64,000 nt of DNA from Candidatus Poribacteria bacterium. GTDB taxonomy: Bacteria; Poribacteria; WGA-4E; WGA-3G. Location of the stretch: the NCBI GenBank assembly GCA_965197475.1, contig CBDANF010000002.1:1056001-1120000 (forward strand). The letters run 5' to 3'. The notes under the pieces are model-generated. The model made no database searches, had not been told where the DNA came from, and was given only the letters and a program-made list of their open reading frames with translations. The translations under genes were made by a program, and so were the position numbers. This document shows, piece by piece, positions 1 through 42,821 of this stretch; position 1 is the stretch's first letter; each line of letters opens with the position of its first letter.

Positions 1-1053
1 GGGTAAGGAAATATCGAAACGTGCGGAGCAACAGCATGACAAGTGGGGGAAACAGGAGAAAGGCACTCACGTGGCTGGTAAAGCCGCTACCTTGATGATA
101 CGCAGGTGAAAGAATAGACATTATAACTAATTAGTTGTCCGTTTGGTTAGTCTCTATTATACTTATTACAATCGGACAATAGGAGGCTAACTCATGATAA
201 GTTTTCAAGAACTAAAGGACAAACCTGATACGCTCCTGTCCCTCACCGGATATACCTTAGAAGATTGGACTGAACTATCACCTTATTTTACTAAATGTTT
301 TTTAGAGTATGTTCAAACACATACCCTTGCAGGAAAACCGCGCAAAAAACGGAGATATAAACCGTATAAAAATAGTCGTTTTGATACACCTGAAGATATG
401 TTGCTATTTATACTGATTTACCTTCGTGAAGCACCGAAACAAGTGCTATTCGGTGCGCTCTTTGGCATGTCTCAACCTCTTGCTAATAGATGGATTCACT
501 TGCTTTTATCGATATTGAACAAAGCATTAGCAGAACTTGGAGAGTTGCCATCTCGGGAAACAGACCCCGCACCTATATGTGCTCCATCAAAAGTATCAAC
601 TCAAAATCAAGAAGGAGAACATTTTTTTCATGATAGCACCGAACGCCCGATACGACGCCCCAAAGACCCGTCAACTCAAAAGGCGTATTATAGTGGTAAA
701 AAGAAATGCCATACAGTGAAAAATAATCTGATTATCAATGAGACCTGCAAAGTCGTCCTATTGACACCTTCTTTTGAAGGAAGACACCATGACAAACACA
801 TAGCCGATACGGTGGGCTATTGTGTGCCACAGGGTAGCACATTGTCCCAAGATACCGGTTTTCAGGGTTTCGTTCTCCCGGATATAAACATCATTCAACC
901 AAAGAAAAAACCGAGAGGTAGAGAACGGACGAATGAAGAAAAAGAAAACAATAGAAAGATAGCGTCTATACGCATACGCGTTGAACATGCGATTAGTGGT
1001 GTCAAAAGATGCCGCATTGTCAAAGATAAACTCAGGAATTGGAAGAAAGGGTT

Positions 1054-1146
1054 CGCTCATGTAAAAGGTGTGTGCGTTTGTTTTTTATGAAGGCAATGGC
1101 CACACAGAGTAAAAGTTTTCCTTAGCACTCATTCTTTACATGAGCC
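1054..1146 (-). mobile_element. MITE family A, copy 1 (ends GGCTCATGTA...TACATGAGCG)
   Basis: Reverse complement aligns with the copies at 2473-2565 and 36663-36756; terminal inverted repeats GCTCATGTAAA. Confidence 0.88.
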
Positions 1147-1168
1147 GCCGAACTTTGTGTACTCGTGT

Positions 1169-1939
1169 TCAGTCTAGAACTGTCTTAAGATGTCCCCACG
1201 TTATTGTTAACTTTCCTGTTGCTTCCACTGTCGCTTGAAATTGCGACGTGAGCCCTGCCATTATCTCGGTAAGCTCCGAAGAGTTCAATGCCGTGTTGTA
1301 GATAGCGACCTCATCGAGGGCACCTTTTAACCGTCCGTTCTTACCATCGGGTGCCTCCGCACCGATAAGCAGCGGAGCGTCGGTTATCGCAGGTTTTCCA
1401 GCAGCAGCCCTGGCATTAAATTGATCGCCATCAACGTAAGGGGTTAGATGCTCTTCGTCATACACACCGGCGACGAAGTGCCACTTATCATCGGTGACGT
1501 GTTTGCTGCCCACCTGAAAGTCTTCTCCATCGTTGGGCAACTTAAATCCAAAAGTCATCATGCCGGGACGGATCCACATCGCATAATTTCGATTTGGCCA
1601 ATTTTGTTTGGAAATGATTTTTTGGTATGGATCGACAATCGCAGGGACTTTTATCCATGCCGTTATTGTCCACTGCCTGAGATTCATGATATCCTCATGC
1701 GGCACGATAACATACCCACTATCAAATTCGAGGCCCGTACCAAATTTCCCTTCAGTCCACGCCACCTCACCTACAATTTCACCGTCATGTCCTTTACCTG
1801 ACGCATCTTTGACGATCTTACCGTTTCCTTCATCAAATAGCCATACCCCTACCACCTCAGCTGTGGTACTTTTAGTAAGTAACACCGAAATAGCAAAAAA
1901 GCTCACGAGGAGCATCAAAAACGTTAGTTTCCTTTTCAT
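1169..1939 (-). CDS. Secreted LamG/concanavalin-A-like jellyroll protein with C-terminal VExxGKLTxxW tag
   Basis: Signal peptide; WLFDEGNG, GKFGTGLEF, WHFVAGVYD, GALDEVAIYNTAL motifs; RBS AAGGAG. Confidence 0.88.
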   Translation of the reverse strand: MKRKLTFLMLLVSFFAISVLLTKSTTAEVVGVWLFDEGNGKIVKDASGKGHDGEIVGEVAWTEGKFGTGLEFDSGYVIVPHEDIMNLRQWTITAWIKVPAIVDPYQKIISKQNWPNRNYAMWIRPGMMTFGFKLPNDGEDFQVGSKHVTDDKWHFVAGVYDEEHLTPYVDGDQFNARAAAGKPAITDAPLLIGAEAPDGKNGRLKGALDEVAIYNTALNSSELTEIMAGLTSQFQATVEATGKLTITWGHLKTVLD

Positions 1940-1961
1940 GTTTTCTGTTTCTCCTTTTTGT

Positions 1962-2121
1962 TAGTTTTTACGCAGATGCGTTTGCATTTCTATAGATTTT
2001 TCGGATTTTCAAGGTTTTACCCTCCTTTATCTCCCTGCTTGCAAGGGGAAATTCTTTCTACATCCCACAAGCTAAAACGTGGGGATTTGACGGGAGGGTG
2101 TTAACTCCTGCGTAAGGAGTC
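1962..2121. mobile_element. Degenerate MITE family B (IS701-type TTACGCA...TGCGTAA ends) in the LamG 5' UTR
   Basis: Core ends match the TIR of the IS at 18789-19878 and the MITE at 40233-40372; internal hairpins; no clean target duplication. Confidence 0.5.
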
Positions 2122-2127
2122 ATATTA

Positions 2128-2197
2128 GAAAAAGAGGGTATTGGTTAAATAATGATGCGAGAATTAGCGGATACCCTCCAGAACCCGCTGCATCACC
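2128..2197 (-). ncRNA. Candidate structured cis-regulatory RNA leader, copy 1
   Basis: GUGAUGC/GCAUCAU stem, AGCGG/CCGCU stem, loop GAGGGUAU complementary to downstream AUACCCUC followed by U5; near-identical copy at 25127-25199. Confidence 0.55.
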
Positions 2198-2211
2198 TTT
2201 CAACTACAGTT

Positions 2212-2240
2212 ATGATAACACTTATGATTAAAATTGTCAA
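2212..2240 (-). promoter_or_regulatory. Sigma70-type promoter of the LamG gene
   Basis: TTGACA-17 bp-TATCAT with extended TG. Confidence 0.75.
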
Positions 2241-2268
2241 TAAAAAATCAGTCTGATTTTTTATTGAC
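2236..2268. repeat. Perfect 16-bp inverted repeat overlapping the -35 box
   Basis: GTCAATAAAAAATCAG-T-CTGATTTTTTATTGAC. Confidence 0.8.
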
Positions 2269-2327
2269 TTCTGCGCCTAAAACTTGTCCCCTCATTGAAA
2301 ACGAACTCGCTGCTATCGGAGGATACC

Positions 2328-2472
2328 ATGAAACATTGTCCAAGATGTCAACACACCCATTTCGTCAAAAACGGATGCGTCAACGCAAAGCAACGCTATA
2401 AATGTCCAAAATGCCAATATCAATGGACACGCACAACACCACGAGGGAAACCACAAGCACATAAAACCCTCA
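2328..2472 (+). pseudogene. IS1-family transposase N-terminal zinc-ribbon fragment, truncated by MITE A
   Basis: CPRCQ...VKNG...KQRYKCPKC motif typical of InsA; ends at the MITE boundary. Confidence 0.75.
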
Positions 2473-2565
2473 GGCTCATGTAAAGACTGTGTGCTAATGA
2501 AGATGTCAAACCCACGTGGTGACTGCCTTCGTTAGAAACAATCGCACATACTTTTTACATGAGCG
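2473..2565 (+). mobile_element. MITE family A, copy 2
   Basis: GGCTCATGTAAA...TTTACATGAGCG; aligns with copies 1 and 3. Confidence 0.88.
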
Positions 2566-2694
2566 AAAGGGTTTTGTGATTTAGTTATGGAAACTTGTTG
2601 TGGTTTACACAACTTCCGACTAAACTTTAGACCCTGGCGTTATGAAACTCCTGTTATTTAAATCATTATAATGTCTAATATGTATCCACCATTG

Positions 2695-2739
2695 CACCTG
2701 GGAGAATACTTGTGCAAGCGACAAGTATTCTCCCAGGTG
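2695..2739. terminator. 19-bp perfect hairpin, probable terminator
   Basis: CACCTGGGAGAATACTTGT-7 nt loop-ACAAGTATTCTCCCAGGTG followed by a T-rich tract. Confidence 0.55.
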
Positions 2740-3096
2740 TTATCTTTTTCTGGATTGCTGTATTTACATATCGGTTATTCACTGTTCAATCCCCACCATT
2801 TATCCCAAAATATGATTGCAGTATCTAATTTCTCTTTATCTATCATCAACATTATATGGGTAAACGTAAATATTATATCCTAAGTTTCGGTGAATGTCAA
2901 ATTTTTAAGTATTTTCACAATTTTTTAATTATACACGCGAATTTTGTTTTTGTCAAATTAAATTCTGATAAATTTGACAGTAAGTTTGTCAAAAACCGCG
3001 TAATCTGTGTAATCTGAGATTCAGACAAAAATAACGTGGTATAATTTACAGAATTCATGTAAAATCATAAGATACATCATAAGAAAGGGAACTAAA

Positions 3097-5013
3097 ATGA
3101 AACATTTCTTAACATGTGTCGGACTGCTGTTTATCACCACAGCAGTTTTCGCACAAGGATTAACTATAACATCAACAGATTATCGTGAAGACATGCTTTT
3201 ATCAAAAGAGCCTGTTATAACAGGGTTTGAAGGTTCGTCAACCGTTGTTGAATTTGAGACGTTAATTGATGCACCCGCTGCTATTGCATACTACGGTGTT
3301 CCGCATACGGAAGGCAACTTGACAACACCCCGATATCGTAAAAGTGCCATGGGAATGCACATTGAAGACAACAAAACACGACATCGTATTAAAATGGACA
3401 TCTCTAAACTTGAGGATGTGCATTACGATACAGGTTTGATTGCCGATAATGGTGGCAGCATAGTATACCGTATAGAGATTTTTGATTCACGTATACAAAC
3501 AACACGTGCTTATGACCGGCGTTTGCGCTACAAGCGTGAGGGTGAACCTATGACAGGTACTTACAAATCGCTTGTTACCCTGACGGAAGGACCATTTGTC
3601 GATCTTGTTACGCATGATTCTGCAGTAATTTCTTGGGAAACGGATATCCCTGTGAAAGGAACTGTTTTGTCGCATAATAGGGAATTTTTATCCTTGGATC
3701 CTGCAATCCGACATGAAGTCCGTATTACAAATCTAAAACCTGATACAGTCTATACCTATCAGGTAAATTTCAGCATCTATACGCCATCGTATACTTTCAA
3801 AACAGCACCTGAACCGGGAAAAAGAACCACCTTTAAGTTTGGATTTATGTCAGACTCACGTGCAGGCGTAGGTGGGGGCGAGCGCGCACAGAACGGTGTC
3901 AATGCCAAAGACCTTGGGCGTTTCGCTAATGAGCTCTATAACAAAAAAGCGGATTTTGTCTGTTTCGGTGGCGATCTCATCAACGGTTATACCTCTGATG
4001 TGCAGGATTTTGAATCTCAACTTAAAACATGGAAACGAACAATCCAACCTGTCGGTGCGAATATCCCTTTTTACGAATCCATAGGCAATCATGAGCAGGT
4101 TGGGTCATACTTTAAAGTCGAAGCACCGCATCTCAAGCAAGGCGAATACTACATCCAATTCACAGGCACAGTCGGTGCAGAAAGTGCCGAGGCAATTTTC
4201 GCAAAAGAATTTGTCAATCCTGGCGGAAGCAGTTATGGATTAGGCGTGCCAAAGCCGGAAGCAAAAGGCAGCAGTGATATGGGTGGTGCCGATACAGGAC
4301 CTTCCTATCATGAAAACGTTTACTCGTTCAATTACGGCAGGGTCCATTTCATATCTCTAAACACAAATTATTGGGCAACCGGTTATAGGAATTTAAGCAC
4401 GTTCGCTCAGAAATCGCAGGATAAAACCGCGATAAATCTTGCCCTTAAGCATCTCGGTGGCAACAGGGAAGGATATGTGATGGCAAATCAGATGGAATGG
4501 CTGGCAAATGAATTAGATGCTGCACAAAAAGACTCAAATGTAGATTGGATATTCATTATTCTTCATGAACCTCCCTTCCCGAACGGTGGGCATGTCAAAG
4601 ACGGAATGTATTGGGGAACTCCTGGCGAAGGTGAACTCGGTGGTTACAACAATCCTGATGTGCCGATGGGTGATGTGATTGATATGCGAAACAGATTTTG
4701 GAAAATCGTCTCAAGCAAGTCAAAAGTGTTAGGGGTGCTTTGTGGCGATGAACACAACTACAGTCGAACTTTAATTGATTCATCGGTGAATCCAGATTTC
4801 AAGTTTCCTGTGTGGCAGATTATAAGTGGTGGGTGTGGTGCGCCTTATTACGTTCAAGATAAGTCGGTGCCGTGGGTGGACAAAGTCAAAGCGTTCGCTA
4901 TTGATAAACACTTCTGCCTTTTTTCGGTTGAAGGTAAAAAAATCGGGTTGGAAGTCTATAATGACAGCAGTCAGTTGTTGGACAAAATTGGGAATTTAAC
5001 AACAATTCGGTAG
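3097..5013 (+). CDS. Secreted metallophosphoesterase (purple acid phosphatase-like, FN3-like + calcineurin-like domains)
   Basis: Signal peptide; HEVRITNLKPDTVYTY FN3-like segment; SDSR, GGDLING, GNHE, HEP, GDEH motifs; upstream of the pst operon. Confidence 0.85.
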   Translation: MKHFLTCVGLLFITTAVFAQGLTITSTDYREDMLLSKEPVITGFEGSSTVVEFETLIDAPAAIAYYGVPHTEGNLTTPRYRKSAMGMHIEDNKTRHRIKMDISKLEDVHYDTGLIADNGGSIVYRIEIFDSRIQTTRAYDRRLRYKREGEPMTGTYKSLVTLTEGPFVDLVTHDSAVISWETDIPVKGTVLSHNREFLSLDPAIRHEVRITNLKPDTVYTYQVNFSIYTPSYTFKTAPEPGKRTTFKFGFMSDSRAGVGGGERAQNGVNAKDLGRFANELYNKKADFVCFGGDLINGYTSDVQDFESQLKTWKRTIQPVGANIPFYESIGNHEQVGSYFKVEAPHLKQGEYYIQFTGTVGAESAEAIFAKEFVNPGGSSYGLGVPKPEAKGSSDMGGADTGPSYHENVYSFNYGRVHFISLNTNYWATGYRNLSTFAQKSQDKTAINLALKHLGGNREGYVMANQMEWLANELDAAQKDSNVDWIFIILHEPPFPNGGHVKDGMYWGTPGEGELGGYNNPDVPMGDVIDMRNRFWKIVSSKSKVLGVLCGDEHNYSRTLIDSSVNPDFKFPVWQIISGGCGAPYYVQDKSVPWVDKVKAFAIDKHFCLFSVEGKKIGLEVYNDSSQLLDKIGNLTTIR

Positions 5014-24322: not shown

Positions 24323-25162
24323 CTATTTCCGCTTTATATCTGCCCAGATAGTCGTTAACTTTCCTGCGGGTTCAACAGGTAGAATACCCGCAACTTCTTG
24401 GAAGAATTCTGCTTGGTTAGTAGCTTTATCGGGATAAATTTTAACAGCATCGTGTGTAGCATCGTCAAAGTGAAGGTTCATGTAAGCACCTCCTCCAACT
24501 TCAGTCACACGAAAAAGGAGTACGTTTGCCCCTTTTTCCAATGATATCTCAACGTTGAAGTGTACTTTTCTGGCAGCACCTGTCCAGTCAGGGTGATAGT
24601 ACCATTTCTCTCCATTAATCCATATCTGCGCATTGTTATCATGTGCAGGCGACATTACGGATGTCATCGCTTTTGGTGAATCAATCACAAGAATACCATG
24701 GATGTCAATATTATCTGGGGGCCCGCCTCTGTTCATGTTATTATCGTCTGCTATAGGCAGTTCAAAGACATTCCATTCCCGGGTTCCACCGTGTCCATCC
24801 CAATCAATTTCGTTGATAGTTTTTGTCTTCTGCAAACCAGCAAGCGTGGAAAGGGTTTCCTGCGTCAGTTTTCCATTGGTGCCTTCGTCAATAAGATCTG
24901 TTTGTATGATTCCAGCACCACCGTTATTTGTGTAGTTACCATCAGGTCCGTACCATTTGCTGATCCAGGTGTTAACTCCGGAGTGATCTTCCTCATTCTT
25001 TCCAGGGGGATTGGCGAAGAATTCGCCTTCTTTCAAGGGACCTCCCTTGAGATTAACTTCACCTATTGCAAACGCGAGATTTGTCGCACTGAAAACTAAT
25101 CCTAAACTTAGTGTGATTGTTAATATAAAAAAGTAGAGGGTATTGGTTAAATAATGATGCAA
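24323..25162 (-). CDS. Secreted hypothetical protein with C-terminal VEPAGKLTTIWADIK tag; start unresolved (TTG inside the RNA motif)
   Basis: Hydrophobic signal ending AFA; beta-sandwich-like C-half (IWINGE, LEKGANVLLF); same tag as the LamG gene. Confidence 0.7.
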   Translation of the reverse strand: MHHYLTNTLYFFILTITLSLGLVFSATNLAFAIGEVNLKGGPLKEGEFFANPPGKNEEDHSGVNTWISKWYGPDGNYTNNGGAGIIQTDLIDEGTNGKLTQETLSTLAGLQKTKTINEIDWDGHGGTREWNVFELPIADDNNMNRGGPPDNIDIHGILVIDSPKAMTSVMSPAHDNNAQIWINGEKWYYHPDWTGAARKVHFNVEISLEKGANVLLFRVTEVGGGAYMNLHFDDATHDAVKIYPDKATNQAEFFQEVAGILPVEPAGKLTTIWADIKRK

Positions 25163-25199
25163 GAATTAGCGGGATACCCTCTGAACCGCGCTGCATCAT
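25127..25199 (-). ncRNA. Candidate structured cis-regulatory RNA leader, copy 2
   Basis: Same stems as 2128-2197; AGAGGGUAU/AUACCCUCU followed by ACUUUUUU; TGnTATCAT at 25215-25223. Confidence 0.55.
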
Positions 25200-25227
25200 A
25201 TTTCAGTTGCGGTAATGATAACACTTA

Positions 25228-26579
25228 CTGATATTTCTCAGAATGGTCTTGAACCTAATAATAATCAATAGAAACAAGGTATAGCACCATGAAAATGCGT
25301 TTTTGCTGTGTCCATTTTCCTTGACTTTTATAGCATGAGATAGCATCCTAATTACAGATTTGAATATAAACAAACATTAGGAGGATATCTCATGCTAACT
25401 CAGCTTATCAAATCTACCACTTTTTTTCAAGAACTTCTATCTTCACAGTTTCGGACCTTGAAACAGCATTTTGTTCATACCTTAGTGTTTTTGTCAACCT
25501 GCCATCTGTTTGGGCTCACTAACCCGGATCAAGTGGCGGATGCGTTGTCTATTCCGAAAACGAGGCTATATCGGGAATTGAACACGATGAGTCTTTATCT
25601 CTGGCAGCATCTTTTTGTGCGTATCGGGTGTTCTATTGCGTTAGAGGTGCTACAGGAGGCAGTATCAAAAAGTGCTGCTTCTCTATCGCGTCTACGTATC
25701 GTCATCAGTGTGGATGATACCTTTGTTTTCCGCTATGGAGAGGGTCTCGCCTACACATCCAATTGGTGGTCTTCTCAAGCAAAACAGCCGATGAAGGGGC
25801 AAAATATATTGGGGATCGTCCTAAAGATTGGAAAACGGATCATTCCCCTGAATATGCGACTGATCAGCAAACAAGGACGCGGGAATACGGATAAACCCTC
25901 CTGTGTCATCACTATGTTCAAGGAAATCTTGTCTTTCTTTGAAGGGACCGGAATAGATATCCGAAACTATCCGGTCACCTTTGATTCGTGGTATGGTAGC
26001 CGCCACTTGATTGACACCTTGCGAGAAATGGGATTTGAAACGATCCTTGTGCACGGAAAAAGCAACTATGTGATGACGATTGATGAAAAAAAAGGTGAAA
26101 CTCTCGGAGCATAAAAAGCCGATCAAACTCCTCTCCAATCAATGGGGTTGCGATAAACCGGTCTATCGCACTAAAGCCACAAGTCCAACTTTTGAAAAGT
26201 CGTGGTGTTCTTGGCAGACCGTGGCAAAATCCGAACAATGCTGGTATTCGGGAAACCGCTGCGTGCGTGTGAAATCCTACGGATATGGTCTCAACACCAC
26301 GGTATAGAACAGTATTGGCGGCATCTAAAAACAGACCTAAACCTCGCATCCATGAGCCTAAAAGGACGGAATGGCGCGTATGCGAACTTAGGTGTGAAAG
26401 TGATGAGCTACCTTTTGATACAGCAGGTCAGTCGCTCCGTGCGAAAAACCTTTCATCAAGGACAACTTGAACTTTCAGGACAGAGGCAGATGCTGTCTGA
26501 TCTCAGCGAGCATTTTCATGAACAAATACCAAGAAAACATTGATAAACATTGACATATGAAGAATTTGATAAATATCAG
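25228..26579 (+). mobile_element. IS4/IS701-like insertion sequence with frameshifted transposase
   Basis: Imperfect TIR CTGATATTTCTCAGAAT vs CTGATATTTATCAAATT; near-direct flanks CACTTA/CCCTTA. Confidence 0.7.
25392..26543 (+). pseudogene. DDE transposase broken into three ORFs
   Basis: ISVDDT, VTFDSWY, HHGIEQYWRHLK in successive frames; first shift at an A-run near 26085-26092. Confidence 0.8.
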
Positions 26580-36662: not shown

Positions 36663-36756
36663 GGCTCATGTAAAGAATGAGTGCTAATGAAAAAGTTAAA
36701 CCCATGTGGCCACTGCGTTCATTGAAAACAACAGCACACATTCTTATACATGAGCG
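36663..36756 (+). mobile_element. MITE family A, solo copy 3
   Basis: Same ends as copies 1 and 2; 8-bp direct repeat AAGAAACT at 36655-36662 and 36757-36764. Confidence 0.9.
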
Positions 36757-38440: not shown

Positions 38441-40144
38441 ATGAGATTTACATGTATTTTAATCGGCATCTTGTGCCTTCTATGCCTTTTTAACCATGGA
38501 AACACCACCCTGGATGCACAGCAAACAACATCCATCCAGATCGAACAACCATATCTTGACCCAAATTGGCGGCCGGAAGCGGGCTACTCACTGACTTTTG
38601 AGATAAGAGTCACCGTGCCTGCTGATTTCTCCAGTGGGACGCTGATCGCAGAACTCCAGAATGTGACTCATTATGCAGGTAAAAGTGGAAATGTGACTGA
38701 CCCAGATGACAGAGTCGTGGACGGAGAGATTTCCGCAGCCGCAGATCTAAGACTATCTCAAACTACGGGTTGGTCGGGGAGCGAAAGTCAGCTCAGCCAC
38801 ACCCTCAGCGGAACGACAACGACGCAGACGATGACTCTGCAAGTTGACTGTGAAGACTACGCTGCCTATGGCGAATTAGTATTGACTGCATCCGGATCCG
38901 ACGGCGCATCCACCCCGGTTACCTACACATCCAACACGGTTACCGTAAAAATACCCAGAGATGAAAACGGCAATAAAATTGCCGATGGCTGGCAAAACGA
39001 CGGAGCCAAGAACTACGGACACGATGACGATAATGATAGCGGGCCAGCTTCCAATTCCAATGACGGTGATGGCATCACCGTCATTGATGAATACAGAGGA
39101 CTTACTCTCAACGGCACATGGACAGCTACCGATCCCAATGGGTGGGATATTTTTGTCCAACTTAGTTCTACTCTCACTGATCCCACTGATCCCACTGATC
39201 CCACTGACACCGGATATAGCACCGATAAAGCAGATGCTTTACCCATGACCGTCCATGATGTGTCGCCAATGCTGGTAGATTGCCTCGAAGGGGCTGTCTA
39301 TTCTTCTGGAATCGGAAGTCACGAGGTTTGCGCCATTAGACTTATTGCATACTCCGGAGAGGATTTTGGAGGTTGTGATTCTGCTACTTCAGCAGGATGT
39401 ATGTATGGGGGACCTCCCAGCATTTACTCAACTGGGTACATCAACCTAAATGTAATACAAAGGGGGATTAAATCCTATAGCGACGACATGGGTATAACTA
39501 TCAATAAAACCGATTATGTAAATGCTGTCATTGCACATGAAATCGGGCACGCTGTTAATCTTGGCCACTGTCCGAATATTGACTGTCCAGACTGTTTTGT
39601 GTGGGGATTAAATGATTGGCCTTCGCAATATGTAACGCAATTTGCTGCGCATCATGATTCAGACTACGATTTAGTACCCAACCCCGGCGGATATCATCCT
39701 CGACAGACTGAATATGGTGGCACACTTCCCGATAGAGGATATAGTAGTGAAAGAGGAGTACATATCCGACAAATCGAAGATATTAATGGGGACGGTGTTA
39801 TCAATATTTTGGACCTAAACGCAGTTGCATCAAAATATAATACTAATTTGTTCGACAAAGATTACAACATTCTTATGGATGTCAACAATGACGAAAGCAT
39901 TAATATTTTAGATTTGGTGCAGGTTGCATCGGCATTTGGTACAGCTTCCGAATTTCCACATCTACCTGAAGACGTTAATGATGACCGTGTTGTCAATATT
40001 TTGGACCTAATCATCGTTGCGTCAAACTTCGGCGAGAGCGGGACACATGTTGGAGATATTAACTGTGACGGCACCGTTGATATTTTAGATTTGGTGCGGG
40101 TCACAGCGGTATTTGGGAGTACGGTTCTCGCCCCTGAAGAATAG
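38441..40144 (+). CDS. Secreted zinc-metallopeptidase-like protein with C-terminal dockerin-type EF-hand repeats
   Basis: Signal peptide; HEIGHAVNLGH; four DxNxDxxxxILDL repeats; 9-bp TDP tandem repeat near 39174-39207. Confidence 0.78.
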   Translation: MRFTCILIGILCLLCLFNHGNTTLDAQQTTSIQIEQPYLDPNWRPEAGYSLTFEIRVTVPADFSSGTLIAELQNVTHYAGKSGNVTDPDDRVVDGEISAAADLRLSQTTGWSGSESQLSHTLSGTTTTQTMTLQVDCEDYAAYGELVLTASGSDGASTPVTYTSNTVTVKIPRDENGNKIADGWQNDGAKNYGHDDDNDSGPASNSNDGDGITVIDEYRGLTLNGTWTATDPNGWDIFVQLSSTLTDPTDPTDPTDTGYSTDKADALPMTVHDVSPMLVDCLEGAVYSSGIGSHEVCAIRLIAYSGEDFGGCDSATSAGCMYGGPPSIYSTGYINLNVIQRGIKSYSDDMGITINKTDYVNAVIAHEIGHAVNLGHCPNIDCPDCFVWGLNDWPSQYVTQFAAHHDSDYDLVPNPGGYHPRQTEYGGTLPDRGYSSERGVHIRQIEDINGDGVINILDLNAVASKYNTNLFDKDYNILMDVNNDESINILDLVQVASAFGTASEFPHLPEDVNDDRVVNILDLIIVASNFGESGTHVGDINCDGTVDILDLVRVTAVFGSTVLAPEE

Positions 40145-40163
40145 CTGCGCAATCTATACTGTG

Positions 40164-40663
40164 TTGTCTGAATCTCGGATTGTACGGATTTCACGGAGGA
40201 CGCGGATTTTCTCAATTGCGATGTATACCTATCAGGACGGACGCATTCCCCCTTGATAAGGGGGTTAAAAAGTCGCTATTTCAGTGATTTAACCCCCTCC
40301 CCCACACGCTATTCGCTATGGGGACCCTTCCTTGTTATCAAGGGGACTTTAAGAGGAAGTGCGTAAGTTCTACCTATAATCCGCGAAATCTGCGTCATCC
40401 GTGAAAATCCGCGATTCAGACAAGACAAGGTGCGGCGAATCAACGCCAAATGCGCTTATGGCATTTGGCGGGTTTCGCTATCGCTCTACCCGACCTACAG
40501 GTAGTTTATGTAGAAACGTGAAAAAATATAGCAGAAAAATCGAAAATTAAATAGCCCTATGTGGCAGCTGAAAATACTTGACATAACAAAGTCAAAAATC
40601 CGCGAAATCCGATTAATCCGCGATTCAGACAACGGTAGGTGCGGTTAGGAAACCGCACCTACC
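40164..40663. repeat. Intergenic repeat cluster (AATCCG..GATTCAGACAA units, GTAG REP hairpins)
   Basis: Units recur at ~2995-3029, 40164-40209 (inverted), 40378-40423 and 40597-40632; GTAGGTGCGGTT..AACCGCACCTA also at ~62167. Confidence 0.7.
40233..40372. mobile_element. MITE family B (non-autonomous partner of the IS701 element)
   Basis: Ends CAGGACGGACGCA/TGCGTAAGTTCTA resemble the IS701 TIR; 5-bp direct repeat CCTAT at 40228-40232 and 40373-40377. Confidence 0.8.
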
Positions 40664-40715: not shown

Positions 40716-42821
40716 ATGAAGACCAAATTATTTTTGATTTTAGTGATTTTGTTTACAATACTTATATTTACTCTAAACACCTTTGCCCAAGATTCCCTGC
40801 AATGGCATCTACCCGAAGGTGCGAAAATGCGCCTCGGTAAAGGACAGATACATGAGATAGCATACTCTCCAGATGGCACGCGTTTTGCGGTAGGAAGTTC
40901 TATCGGAACTTGGCTCTACGATGCGGAAACTGGTGAGGAACTTGACCTACTCACGGTGCATACGGTTGCTGTCAGAAGCGTGGCGTTCAGTCCGGATGGA
41001 AAAAAAATCGCAAGTGGCAGTGAGGCTGGCACAATCCATCTGTGGGATGCCGACACAGGACAACTTCTCCGCGCACTTATAGGGCATACGAAAGGTGTTA
41101 TTAGTATAGCGTTCAGCCCGAATGGAAAAAAAATCGCAAGTAGCAGTTGGGACGATACAATCCGTCTGTGGGATACCGACGCAGGCACACCCCTTCACAC
41201 ACTCACAGGGCATATAGGTGTTGCAGGGCATATAGGTGCGGTCCGTAGCATAGCGTTCAGCCCGGATGGAAAAAAAATCGCAAGTGGCAGCACGGACAGA
41301 ACCATCCGTCTGTGGGATGTTAATACGGGACAACTTCTTCACACACTCATAGAGCATACGAATTATGTTGTTAGTGTAGCGTTCAGCCCGGATGGGAAAA
41401 CACTCGCAAGTGGCAGTTGGGACAGAACCATCCGTCTGTGGGATACCGATACAGGCACACTTCTCCGCACAATCACAATCACAGAGCGTATATGGGGGAT
41501 TTCACACGTCATATTTAGTCCGGATGGCAAGACAATCGCAGGTGGCATCACGGACAAAACCATCCGTCTGTGGGATGTTGATACGGGACAACTTCTCCAC
41601 ACACTCATAGGGCATACGAAAAGTGTTATTAGTGTAGCATTCAGCCCGGATGGGAAAACACTCGCAAGTGGCAGTTGGGACAGAACCATCCGTCTGTGGG
41701 ATACCGATACAGGAGAACCCCTCCGCACACTCACTTTGCCTTTGCATTTGTTTTTTGCCTCTACTAACGCTGTGTTCAGTCCGGATGGGAAAACACTCGC
41801 AAGTGGCAGCACGGACAAAACCATCCATCTGTGGGATGCCGACACAGGACAACTTCTCCGTACGCTCACAGGACATACGTTTTCGGTCCGCAGCATAGCG
41901 TTCAGTCCGGATGGAAAAAAACTCGTAAGTGGCGGTGAGCGCATTATCCGTCTGTGGGATATCGACACAGGCACACCCCTCCGCACACTCACAGGACACG
42001 CGTTTTCGGTCCGTAGCGTAGCATTCAGTCCAGATGGAAAAAAAATCGCAAGTGGCAGTACGGACAGAACCATCCGTCTGTGGGATGCGGACACAGGCAC
42101 ACCCCTCCGCACGCTCATAGGACATACGAATATTATCAATAGTGTAGTGTTCAGCCCGGATGGCAAGACAATCGCAAGTGGCAGTGATGATGGCACTATT
42201 CGTTTGTGGGATGCCGACACAGGCACACCCCTCCACACAATCACAGTGGAAAACCGTTTTATTAATAGTATCGCGTTCAGTCCAGATGGGAAAAAGATCG
42301 TAAGTAACGGTCGTATCCGCACTATCCATCTGTGGGATGCCGACACAGGCACATCCCTTCAAACAATCATACTGTCTCGAGTTCACACAGTTGGTTCGAT
42401 CAATATCAAGAGTGTCGCATTTAGCCCGGATGGCAGGACAATCGCAAGTGGTACTGGTTTCAATTATGGCGGTAGACAGGGAGACAACACTATTCATCTA
42501 TGGGATGCCGATACTGGAGAACATTTACGCACCTTCACAAGGCATGCATATCTTGTGGAGCACGTAACGTTTAGTCCGGATGGAAGCACGCTCGCAAGTG
42601 TAAGTGGGGATGGTACGGTGCTCCTGTGGGATATTGCACCTTCACAACTGTCCGAAGATATTAATGGGGACGGTGTTGTGAATATTCAAGATTTAGTTGC
42701 TGTGGCACAGGCTTTTGGCGAAGCGGAACCCGATCTCAACGGTGATGGTGTTGTGAATATTCAGGACTTGATCATTGTGGCATCGGCATTTGGGATGACG
42801 GTTGCCGCCCCTGAAGAATAG
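40716..42821 (+). CDS. Secreted WD40-repeat protein (14 repeats) with C-terminal dockerin-like domain
   Basis: Signal peptide ending TFA; 14 SPDG/SPNG repeats; EDINGDGVVNIQDL and DLNGDGVVNIQDL. Confidence 0.9.
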   Translation: MKTKLFLILVILFTILIFTLNTFAQDSLQWHLPEGAKMRLGKGQIHEIAYSPDGTRFAVGSSIGTWLYDAETGEELDLLTVHTVAVRSVAFSPDGKKIASGSEAGTIHLWDADTGQLLRALIGHTKGVISIAFSPNGKKIASSSWDDTIRLWDTDAGTPLHTLTGHIGVAGHIGAVRSIAFSPDGKKIASGSTDRTIRLWDVNTGQLLHTLIEHTNYVVSVAFSPDGKTLASGSWDRTIRLWDTDTGTLLRTITITERIWGISHVIFSPDGKTIAGGITDKTIRLWDVDTGQLLHTLIGHTKSVISVAFSPDGKTLASGSWDRTIRLWDTDTGEPLRTLTLPLHLFFASTNAVFSPDGKTLASGSTDKTIHLWDADTGQLLRTLTGHTFSVRSIAFSPDGKKLVSGGERIIRLWDIDTGTPLRTLTGHAFSVRSVAFSPDGKKIASGSTDRTIRLWDADTGTPLRTLIGHTNIINSVVFSPDGKTIASGSDDGTIRLWDADTGTPLHTITVENRFINSIAFSPDGKKIVSNGRIRTIHLWDADTGTSLQTIILSRVHTVGSINIKSVAFSPDGRTIASGTGFNYGGRQGDNTIHLWDADTGEHLRTFTRHAYLVEHVTFSPDGSTLASVSGDGTVLLWDIAPSQLSEDINGDGVVNIQDLVAVAQAFGEAEPDLNGDGVVNIQDLIIVASAFGMTVAAPEE

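Follow-up and report, generated by a model that had tools for sequence, protein, structure and literature searches.

A 1,512-bp insert that carries an intact LamG gene between two inverted 93-bp MITEs interrupts an IS5-like element in a Candidatus Poribacteria genome, and very probably represents a non-autonomous composite transposon that was built in another Poribacteria genome and moved into this host IS by an IS1595-family transposase acting in trans. The insert lies in the window, i.e. the whole stretch of 64,000 nucleotides that was analysed (GenBank assembly GCA_965197475.1, contig CBDANF010000002.1, positions 1,056,001 to 1,120,000, forward strand). The genome of the window is designated G000, and the other G-numbers (G003, G006, G020, G027, G146 and G172) are other genomes that were compared. 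The features of the window on which the argument depends are the following.

116..1053, + strand: left part of the host IS, IS5-like, with the transposase from 194 (Pfam HTH_Tnp_4 and DDE_Tnp_4), preceded by AAT at 113-115
1046..1053, + strand: left target duplication AAAGGGTT, from sequence and empty-site comparison
1054..1146, - strand: MITE L, 93 bp, IS1595-derived, CGCTCATGTA end outward, from alignment to copies
1169..1939, - strand: LamG gene, intact, 256 amino acids, PF13385 (Laminin_G_3) with E=1e-25
1968..2053, - strand: decayed dispersed hairpin repeat with GGACTTACGCA/TGCGTAAGTCC ends, from alignment
2057..2104, - strand: left-end hairpin, presumably of IS605 type, with upstream TTAAC and no tnpA/tnpB after it, 88-94% identical to multicopy ends in relatives
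2134..2472, + strand: IS1-family left end, 339 bp, with terminal repeat, outward promoter, hairpin and transposase start at 2328, cut by MITE R
2473..2565, + strand: MITE R, 93 bp, of a different subfamily, CGCTCATGTA end outward, from alignment to copies
2566..2573, + strand: right target duplication AAAGGGTT, from sequence and empty-site comparison
2574..2676, + strand: right part of the host IS, comprising roughly the final 28 codons plus the right end, with AAT after it at 2677-2679
36663..36756, + strand: solo 94-bp MITE that belongs to the same family and is flanked by a separate duplication, AAGAAACT

Structure of the insert and its empty site

The insert is bounded by the two MITEs and by an outer 8-bp duplication, and its inner flanks are unlike each other (GCCGAACT versus AACCCTCA). 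The coordinates, the inverted MITEs around LamG, and the identical outer and differing inner flanks reported in the first-pass annotation all hold, as does the resumption of the interrupted transposase in frame: across the computed empty site the host protein reads NWKKGF|CDLVMETCCGLHNFR. Uninterrupted copies of the host IS, which that annotation had proposed to look for, occur in G000, where the 60-nt empty site has 29 matches at six or fewer mismatches, 18 of them exact, and each filled junction occurs a single time. The coincidence of two random targets for this MITE family has P ~6e-4, and there are no matching pairs among 35 distinct 8-bp duplications. One composite transposition event through the two outer MITE ends, with an 8-bp duplication, is supported. 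The insert is known from a single site, and the case for its movement as a unit is made by the duplication together with the empty site; a second copy of the cargo was found neither in G000 nor in 175 other genomes of the phylum. No functional cognate transposase is encoded within the insert, the only transposase piece being a 48-codon IS1 fragment.

The IS5-like host element is itself recently active, with about 20 near-full copies in G000 at 90-99.5% identity, and its ends and 3-bp AAT/ATT duplication were deduced from five other copies. Its transposase passes the Pfam models DDE_Tnp_4 and HTH_Tnp_4, but with 52.3 bits falls below the cut-off of 140 of the NCBIfam IS5 model NF033581. The same MITE/IS1595 family has also inserted into two further host-IS copies, as a MITE at C3 3558237 and as a full-size element at C3 3210991.

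The MITEs and their IS1595-family helper

The description of the bounding elements as two copies of one 93-bp MITE is right as to length and inversion but not as to close likeness: MITE L and MITE R are 76% identical in the inverted sense (49% in the direct sense) and belong to two subfamilies. Both outer ends of the insert are C ends. The closest other copy of MITE L is 87% identical in G000 and 88% identical across 111 genomes of the family; its outer 23 nt equal the C end of a subfamily with eight identical copies, so ends of this type have moved recently in the lineage. MITE R has a best match of 83% in G000 and matches copies in G172, G146 and G003 at 97-98%, with about 25 copies of its type in G172, and is, judged by sequence identity, a foreign subfamily. 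Four MITE R-type copies lie within 3.4 kb of one another in G172 (C1:5219757-5223108, locus L124), and the reverse-complement flank matches of the outer two indicate an inversion between them.

G000 contains 26 MITEs of the family, 14 of which have a perfect 8-bp duplication of their own. The solo copy at 36663 has its own 8-bp duplication (AAGAAACT), as first annotated, although its size is 94 rather than 93 bp. Nesting of the same logic is seen elsewhere in G000, where a 91-bp MITE of the family sits inside a 330-bp element with CTGA(C/T)ATTTCTCA ends at three sites (C2:879271-879600, C2:1338046-1338375 and C3:3412241-3412568); the same 91-bp variant has about eight copies each in G003 and G020.

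The MITEs share their ends, GGCTCATGT/CGCTCATGT, with 36 full-size elements of G000, 32 of them 986 bp and four 984-985 bp long. The transposase of the 986-bp element matches PF12762 (DDE_Tnp_IS1595) at 48.1 bits against a cut-off of 27, and its putative N-terminal zinc ribbon scores 20.9 bits for PF12760, below the cut-off of 25.4. The full-size copies are flanked by A/T-edged duplications of 8 bp, a few of 9 or 7 bp, perfect in most cases. IS1595-family elements usually generate an 8-bp target duplication, according to the accessible text of PMC8101967, and A/T-rich 8-bp duplications together with a DDE_Tnp_IS1595 transposase belong to the family description in the accessible parts of PMC12561309 and PMC8101967. 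By their ends, the MITEs derive from an IS1595-family element, and the autonomous helper of IS1595 type that the first-pass annotation called for is thereby identified in G000.

Several other arrangements of related ends were observed in G000. Two full-size IS1595 copies 190 kb apart (C3:452003-452988 and 641907-642892) have swapped duplications, a signature of circle integration by recombination or of misassembly. A minimal 37-bp element at C2:458114-458150 consists of two abutted IS1595-family terminal repeats without a clear duplication. Elements of 2.0-2.4 kb, which exceed the 1,139-bp form in length, have CGCAAT(A/G)AGT ends and 8-bp duplications and are found at C2:1135902-1138154, C2:1207542-1209961, C3:590404-592373 and C3:2986104-2988507.

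The cargo

The LamG gene is preceded by a ribosome-binding site and stops 22 bp from MITE L; its product has, by eye, a signal-peptide-like N-terminus, and a TWGxLK-type tail. Third-position G+C content (GC3) is 0.48, above the 95th percentile of the genome, which is 0.47, and well above its median of 0.40. No LamG relative was detected in viral contigs, and a search of PDB sequences returned weak, uninformative matches only. Elsewhere in the window there are a 126-bp repeat array at 40949-42632, which we take to be WD40-like, and 60-bp repeats at 39776-40164, presumably dockerin-like from their appearance.

The remainder of the cargo is made up of mobile-element remnants. The decayed repeat at 1968-2053 has 13 matches at 84-88% in G027 and none in four other genomes, and belongs to a wider GGACTTACGCA/TGCGTAAGTCC family with 45 end pairs in G000. 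The presumed IS605-type end at 2057-2104 is the sole copy found in G000, and similar ends precede TnpA/TnpB-like ORFs at several loci. The IS1-family end is 79-85% identical to 15 other copies in G000, 14 of which have a twin at 98-100%, and 95% identical to an intact G006 element, the protein of which passes the NCBIfam model transpos_IS1; MITE R cuts the fragment exactly where the G006 element goes on. Another IS sits at one and the same position of IS1-family ends at 25136-25230 of the window and at several other sites in G000.

The "promoter and RNA leader" attributed to LamG are present as sequence but are not the gene's own, since they belong to the IS1-family end at 2134-2472, which the first-pass annotation overlooked, the IS605-type end and the decayed repeat. 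The best promoter-like site (2240-2212, - strand) matches 11 of 12 consensus positions with an extended -10, lies inside the IS1-family end and points toward LamG. Because a promoter scan gave four sites where 3.0 are expected from shuffles, the evidence for this promoter is its conservation rather than the count: it is kept in all 16 of the IS1-family ends. The upstream motif of the chromosomal LamG orthologs is not recognisable intact in the cargo. The outward promoter of the captured IS1 end probably drives LamG.

The predicted folding of the segment after the promoter lies about 3 SD below that of mononucleotide shuffles, and the core stem of the IS1-end hairpin is paired in 16 to 18 of 18 rows, but is nearly invariant, so that its covariation support is weak. 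An Rfam scan of 1000-3100 gave two chance miRNA matches far below threshold. Within 2134-2240 of the IS1-family end, a foldable segment of about 75 nt has a loop, GAGGGT, complementary to the terminal ACCCTC, a possible pseudoknot. In four RNA runs of one study, 0.49-0.90 of the cargo words are present; one of these runs, X11, covers the non-coding flank too, and DNA may account for the signal.

Strain variation in public sequencing runs

The junctions were sought in contigs of four of the 24 listed runs, from four studies, one of which (X1) may be the source sample and so not independent. In two of the four runs (X4 and X8) the bridge over the left junction includes 105 host-side letters, as against 30 in the other two; one X8 contig among those listed crosses the right junction, with 30 host-side letters. 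These contigs support the two joins on whose continuity the first-pass annotation depended; the right falls one letter short of the 31-letter bridging rule. X4 and X8, from two other studies, share this insert and its place in the host IS and differ from G000 at three positions over 949-2348, none of them in LamG. At least two strains have kept the LamG gene intact. The distribution of changes in the insert (none in LamG, about four events in the remainder) hints at selection, with events too few to count. The X4 and X8 contigs give no cover at 2698-2900, with a cargo depth of 61-73; the nested IS could lie elsewhere in these strains, which is a lead only, as a hole between contigs proves nothing.

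Origin of the cargo

Orthologs of the cargo LamG at 65-71% identity are present in 42 of the 65 genomes of the sister genus g13 and, with this query at E <=1e-60, in none of 39 congeners of G000. The cargo gene is the sole member of its ortholog group in G000, where its best paralog is 34% identical, and almost all named loci that hold orthologs are from Poribacteria, in keeping with the context of the genome. At 20 ortholog loci inspected, none has these elements nearby and 19 are upstream of the same large gene; the neighbour genes of the ortholog locus are scattered in G000, with no LamG remnant seen beside them. The g13 orthologs are 79-96% identical to one another but the cargo LamG is only 66-71% identical to them, and in a tree it takes a long branch of uncertain place. 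Among 1,471 candidates there are no homologs between ~71% (full length) and 100%; above ~71% full length, only its own cluster of three is found. A second assembly encodes the identical protein, and no donor emerged. A 1.6-kb contig labelled Dehalococcoidia (L051) has a LamG gene nested among the Poribacteria orthologs in the tree, and is probably a binning error.

MITE R, the IS1 fragment and the IS605-type end have no close copy in G000, and the first two are 95-98% identical to copies elsewhere. The foreign remnants, the ortholog distribution and the GC3 value argue that the cargo was assembled in another genome, and a source of its DNA outside the recipient lineage is the most likely one. 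The event is a gain of a new ortholog group in G000, not a duplication or expansion.

Mechanism and alternatives

Under the favoured reading, two MITEs of different subfamilies would have inserted independently in another Poribacteria genome, the first landing 22 bp past the LamG stop and the second inside the IS1-family transposase gene upstream. An IS1595 transposase acting in trans on the two outer ends could then have moved the block, which would have inserted once into the host IS and truncated the host transposase.

The same composite transposition might instead have relocated the genus's own ortholog, lost from most congeners, within the lineage, by cutting it from its native place in an ancestor of this strain, which we regard as unlikely although deserving of some weight. 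The 68% identity of the gene to g13 is near the 73-91% at which neighbouring genes of G000 compare with g13 genomes, G000 has no other ortholog copy, and the tree leaves the position of LamG open; however, relocation would require loss in the 39 other sampled congeners, three passenger remnants are of types not otherwise present in G000, GC3 is atypical, and no LamG remnant remains by the former neighbours.

Recombination, in which a resident solo MITE with a AAAGGGTT duplication gained foreign DNA by homologous recombination or an inversion produced the pattern, is highly improbable. Such processes have precedents in the swapped flanks between full-size copies and in the inversion between MITEs of G172, but circle integration would leave direct copies with matching inner flanks, whereas the insert has inverted copies that are 76% alike; inversion would leave reverse-complement flank matches of the G172 pattern, unlike those of the insert; and replacement within a single MITE predicts a G end on one outer side and a C end on the other, whereas both are C ends here and MITE R matches its foreign subfamily over its whole length. 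An artefact of assembly or binning is exceedingly improbable: the estimated contamination of G000 is 6.97% and no contig among those listed spans the entire stretch, but the two host halves, joined over a single 8-mer, give back the host gene exactly, and two further studies supply contigs that extend 105 letters across the left junction, with one contig that reaches 30 letters across the right.

Recurrence of MITE-bounded units

MITE composites recur in G000, as a second unit is bounded by MITEs of a different family:

G000 C3:579015-583578: MITE-bounded gene block, different MITE family, 4,564 bp, 9-bp duplication

Its 9-mer also occurs after another end, at C3:592488, 13.5 kb from the left end of this block. 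The wider claim drawn from the first-pass annotation, that pairs of the MITE family of the LamG insert regularly move expression units for secreted proteins and have driven LamG expansion, is quite unlikely. The second unit, with its predicted membrane or secreted genes, speaks for such a system, as does the occurrence of nine of 60 LamG-like ORFs within 1.5 kb of a family end, compared with 166 of 3,642 background ORFs; however, these nine neighbours form about six clusters, the background holds spurious ORFs, and IS copies accumulate in accessory regions in any case. Family ends on both sides were found for one of the 60 LamG-like ORFs, and of the 19 outer-end pairs of the family within 20 kb in G000, only that of the LamG insert shares flanks, so the proposed comparison of flanks yielded no second composite of this MITE family in G000. 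With a single cargo copy, 1/19 pairs and 1/60 ORFs bracketed, the claim of a LamG expansion route is not supported. In a pattern search of 12 relatives, the four close pairs or clusters fetched comprised two independent insertions, the inversion cluster of G172 and one pair that was half read, with no composite among them.

A generic repeat-boundary scan missed the LamG composite, and its negatives mean little; a scan by seven end families recovered the LamG composite and one other. A pattern search of 112 genomes at 300-330-nt spacing gave no matches, the spacing being too narrow to inform. In G000, 13 non-duplicated MITEs or other ends have no partner end within 15 kb, and the direct pair C3 2809388/2810983 has no common flanks.

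As a speculation to which we give a low probability, sponge Poribacteria might trade secreted-protein genes across genera through a nested non-autonomous relay, in which mixed IS1595 MITE pairs would capture a gene along with a portable outward promoter from an IS1 end, and the disabled host IS, with intact ends and many helpers, would serve as a second vehicle that carries the 2.6-kb nest from site to site and from strain to strain.

Significance and comparison with known systems

The insert is a well-documented case in which a MITE pair brought a gene for a secreted protein, unrelated to resistance, into an uncultured symbiont of sponges, and for which the empty site, a helper and signs of foreign origin are known. 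Two MITEs that are 76% alike can act as one transposon, which implies that scans for near-identical flanks would miss such units. Should such units turn out to be common, they would offer a testable route by which Poribacteria could turn over their large secreted-protein repertoires.

A literature search found no IS1595-derived MITE composites, as judged by listings from which subscription journals are largely absent. No relevant literature was found on LamG in Poribacteria, the word 'laminin' being absent from the accessible text of PMC3909097. Composites of MITEs other than TIMEs are unreported in Enterobacteriaceae, and MITEs are under-annotated, according to the available portion of PMC13367494.

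The closest likeness in working is to TIME-COMP1, TIME-COMP2 and other TIME-COMPs, in which, as described in the accessible portions of PMC4133298 and PMC13367494, two non-autonomous miniature elements in direct or inverted orientation surround cargo that lacks a transposase, duplications beyond the outermost ends serve as the evidence of movement, and non-resistance cargo and promoters from mobile DNA are possible. The LamG unit resembles TIME-COMP1 in particular, with inverted miniature elements, non-resistance cargo and a helper in trans (PMC4133298, in part). The idea that only resistance genes travel between MITEs is not supported, as TIME-COMP1 and TIME-COMP2 carry none in the accessible account (PMC4133298). 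The TIME-COMPs are Tn3-derived and mostly plasmid-borne, with 5-6-bp duplications and flanking copies that are identical or one base apart (PMC4133298, PMC13367494, both in part), whereas the LamG unit is IS1595-derived, has an 8-bp duplication and flanking elements that are 76% alike, and carries a secreted-protein gene on a chromosome-scale contig. With its IS1595 ends and 8-bp duplication, the LamG unit is TIME-COMP-like in working but not a strict TIME-COMP.

In the MITE-flanked class 1 integrons of Acinetobacter, a MITE pair likewise moves a gene block as a unit, but the available text of PMC10969869 describes the same 439-bp MITE at both ends, resistance cargo and recurrence in many strains, whereas the LamG unit has two MITE subfamilies and one known site. 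Tn7560 illustrates that two IS1595-family members can bound cargo; it is described in the accessible parts of PMC12561309 and PMC8101967 as pseudo-compound, bounded by full-size ISApl4 and without flanking duplications, whereas the bounds of the LamG unit are transposase-less and its duplication is present. What is unusual in the LamG unit is the mixed subfamily pair, the IS1595 origin and the promoter borrowed, as its sequence suggests, from a third element.
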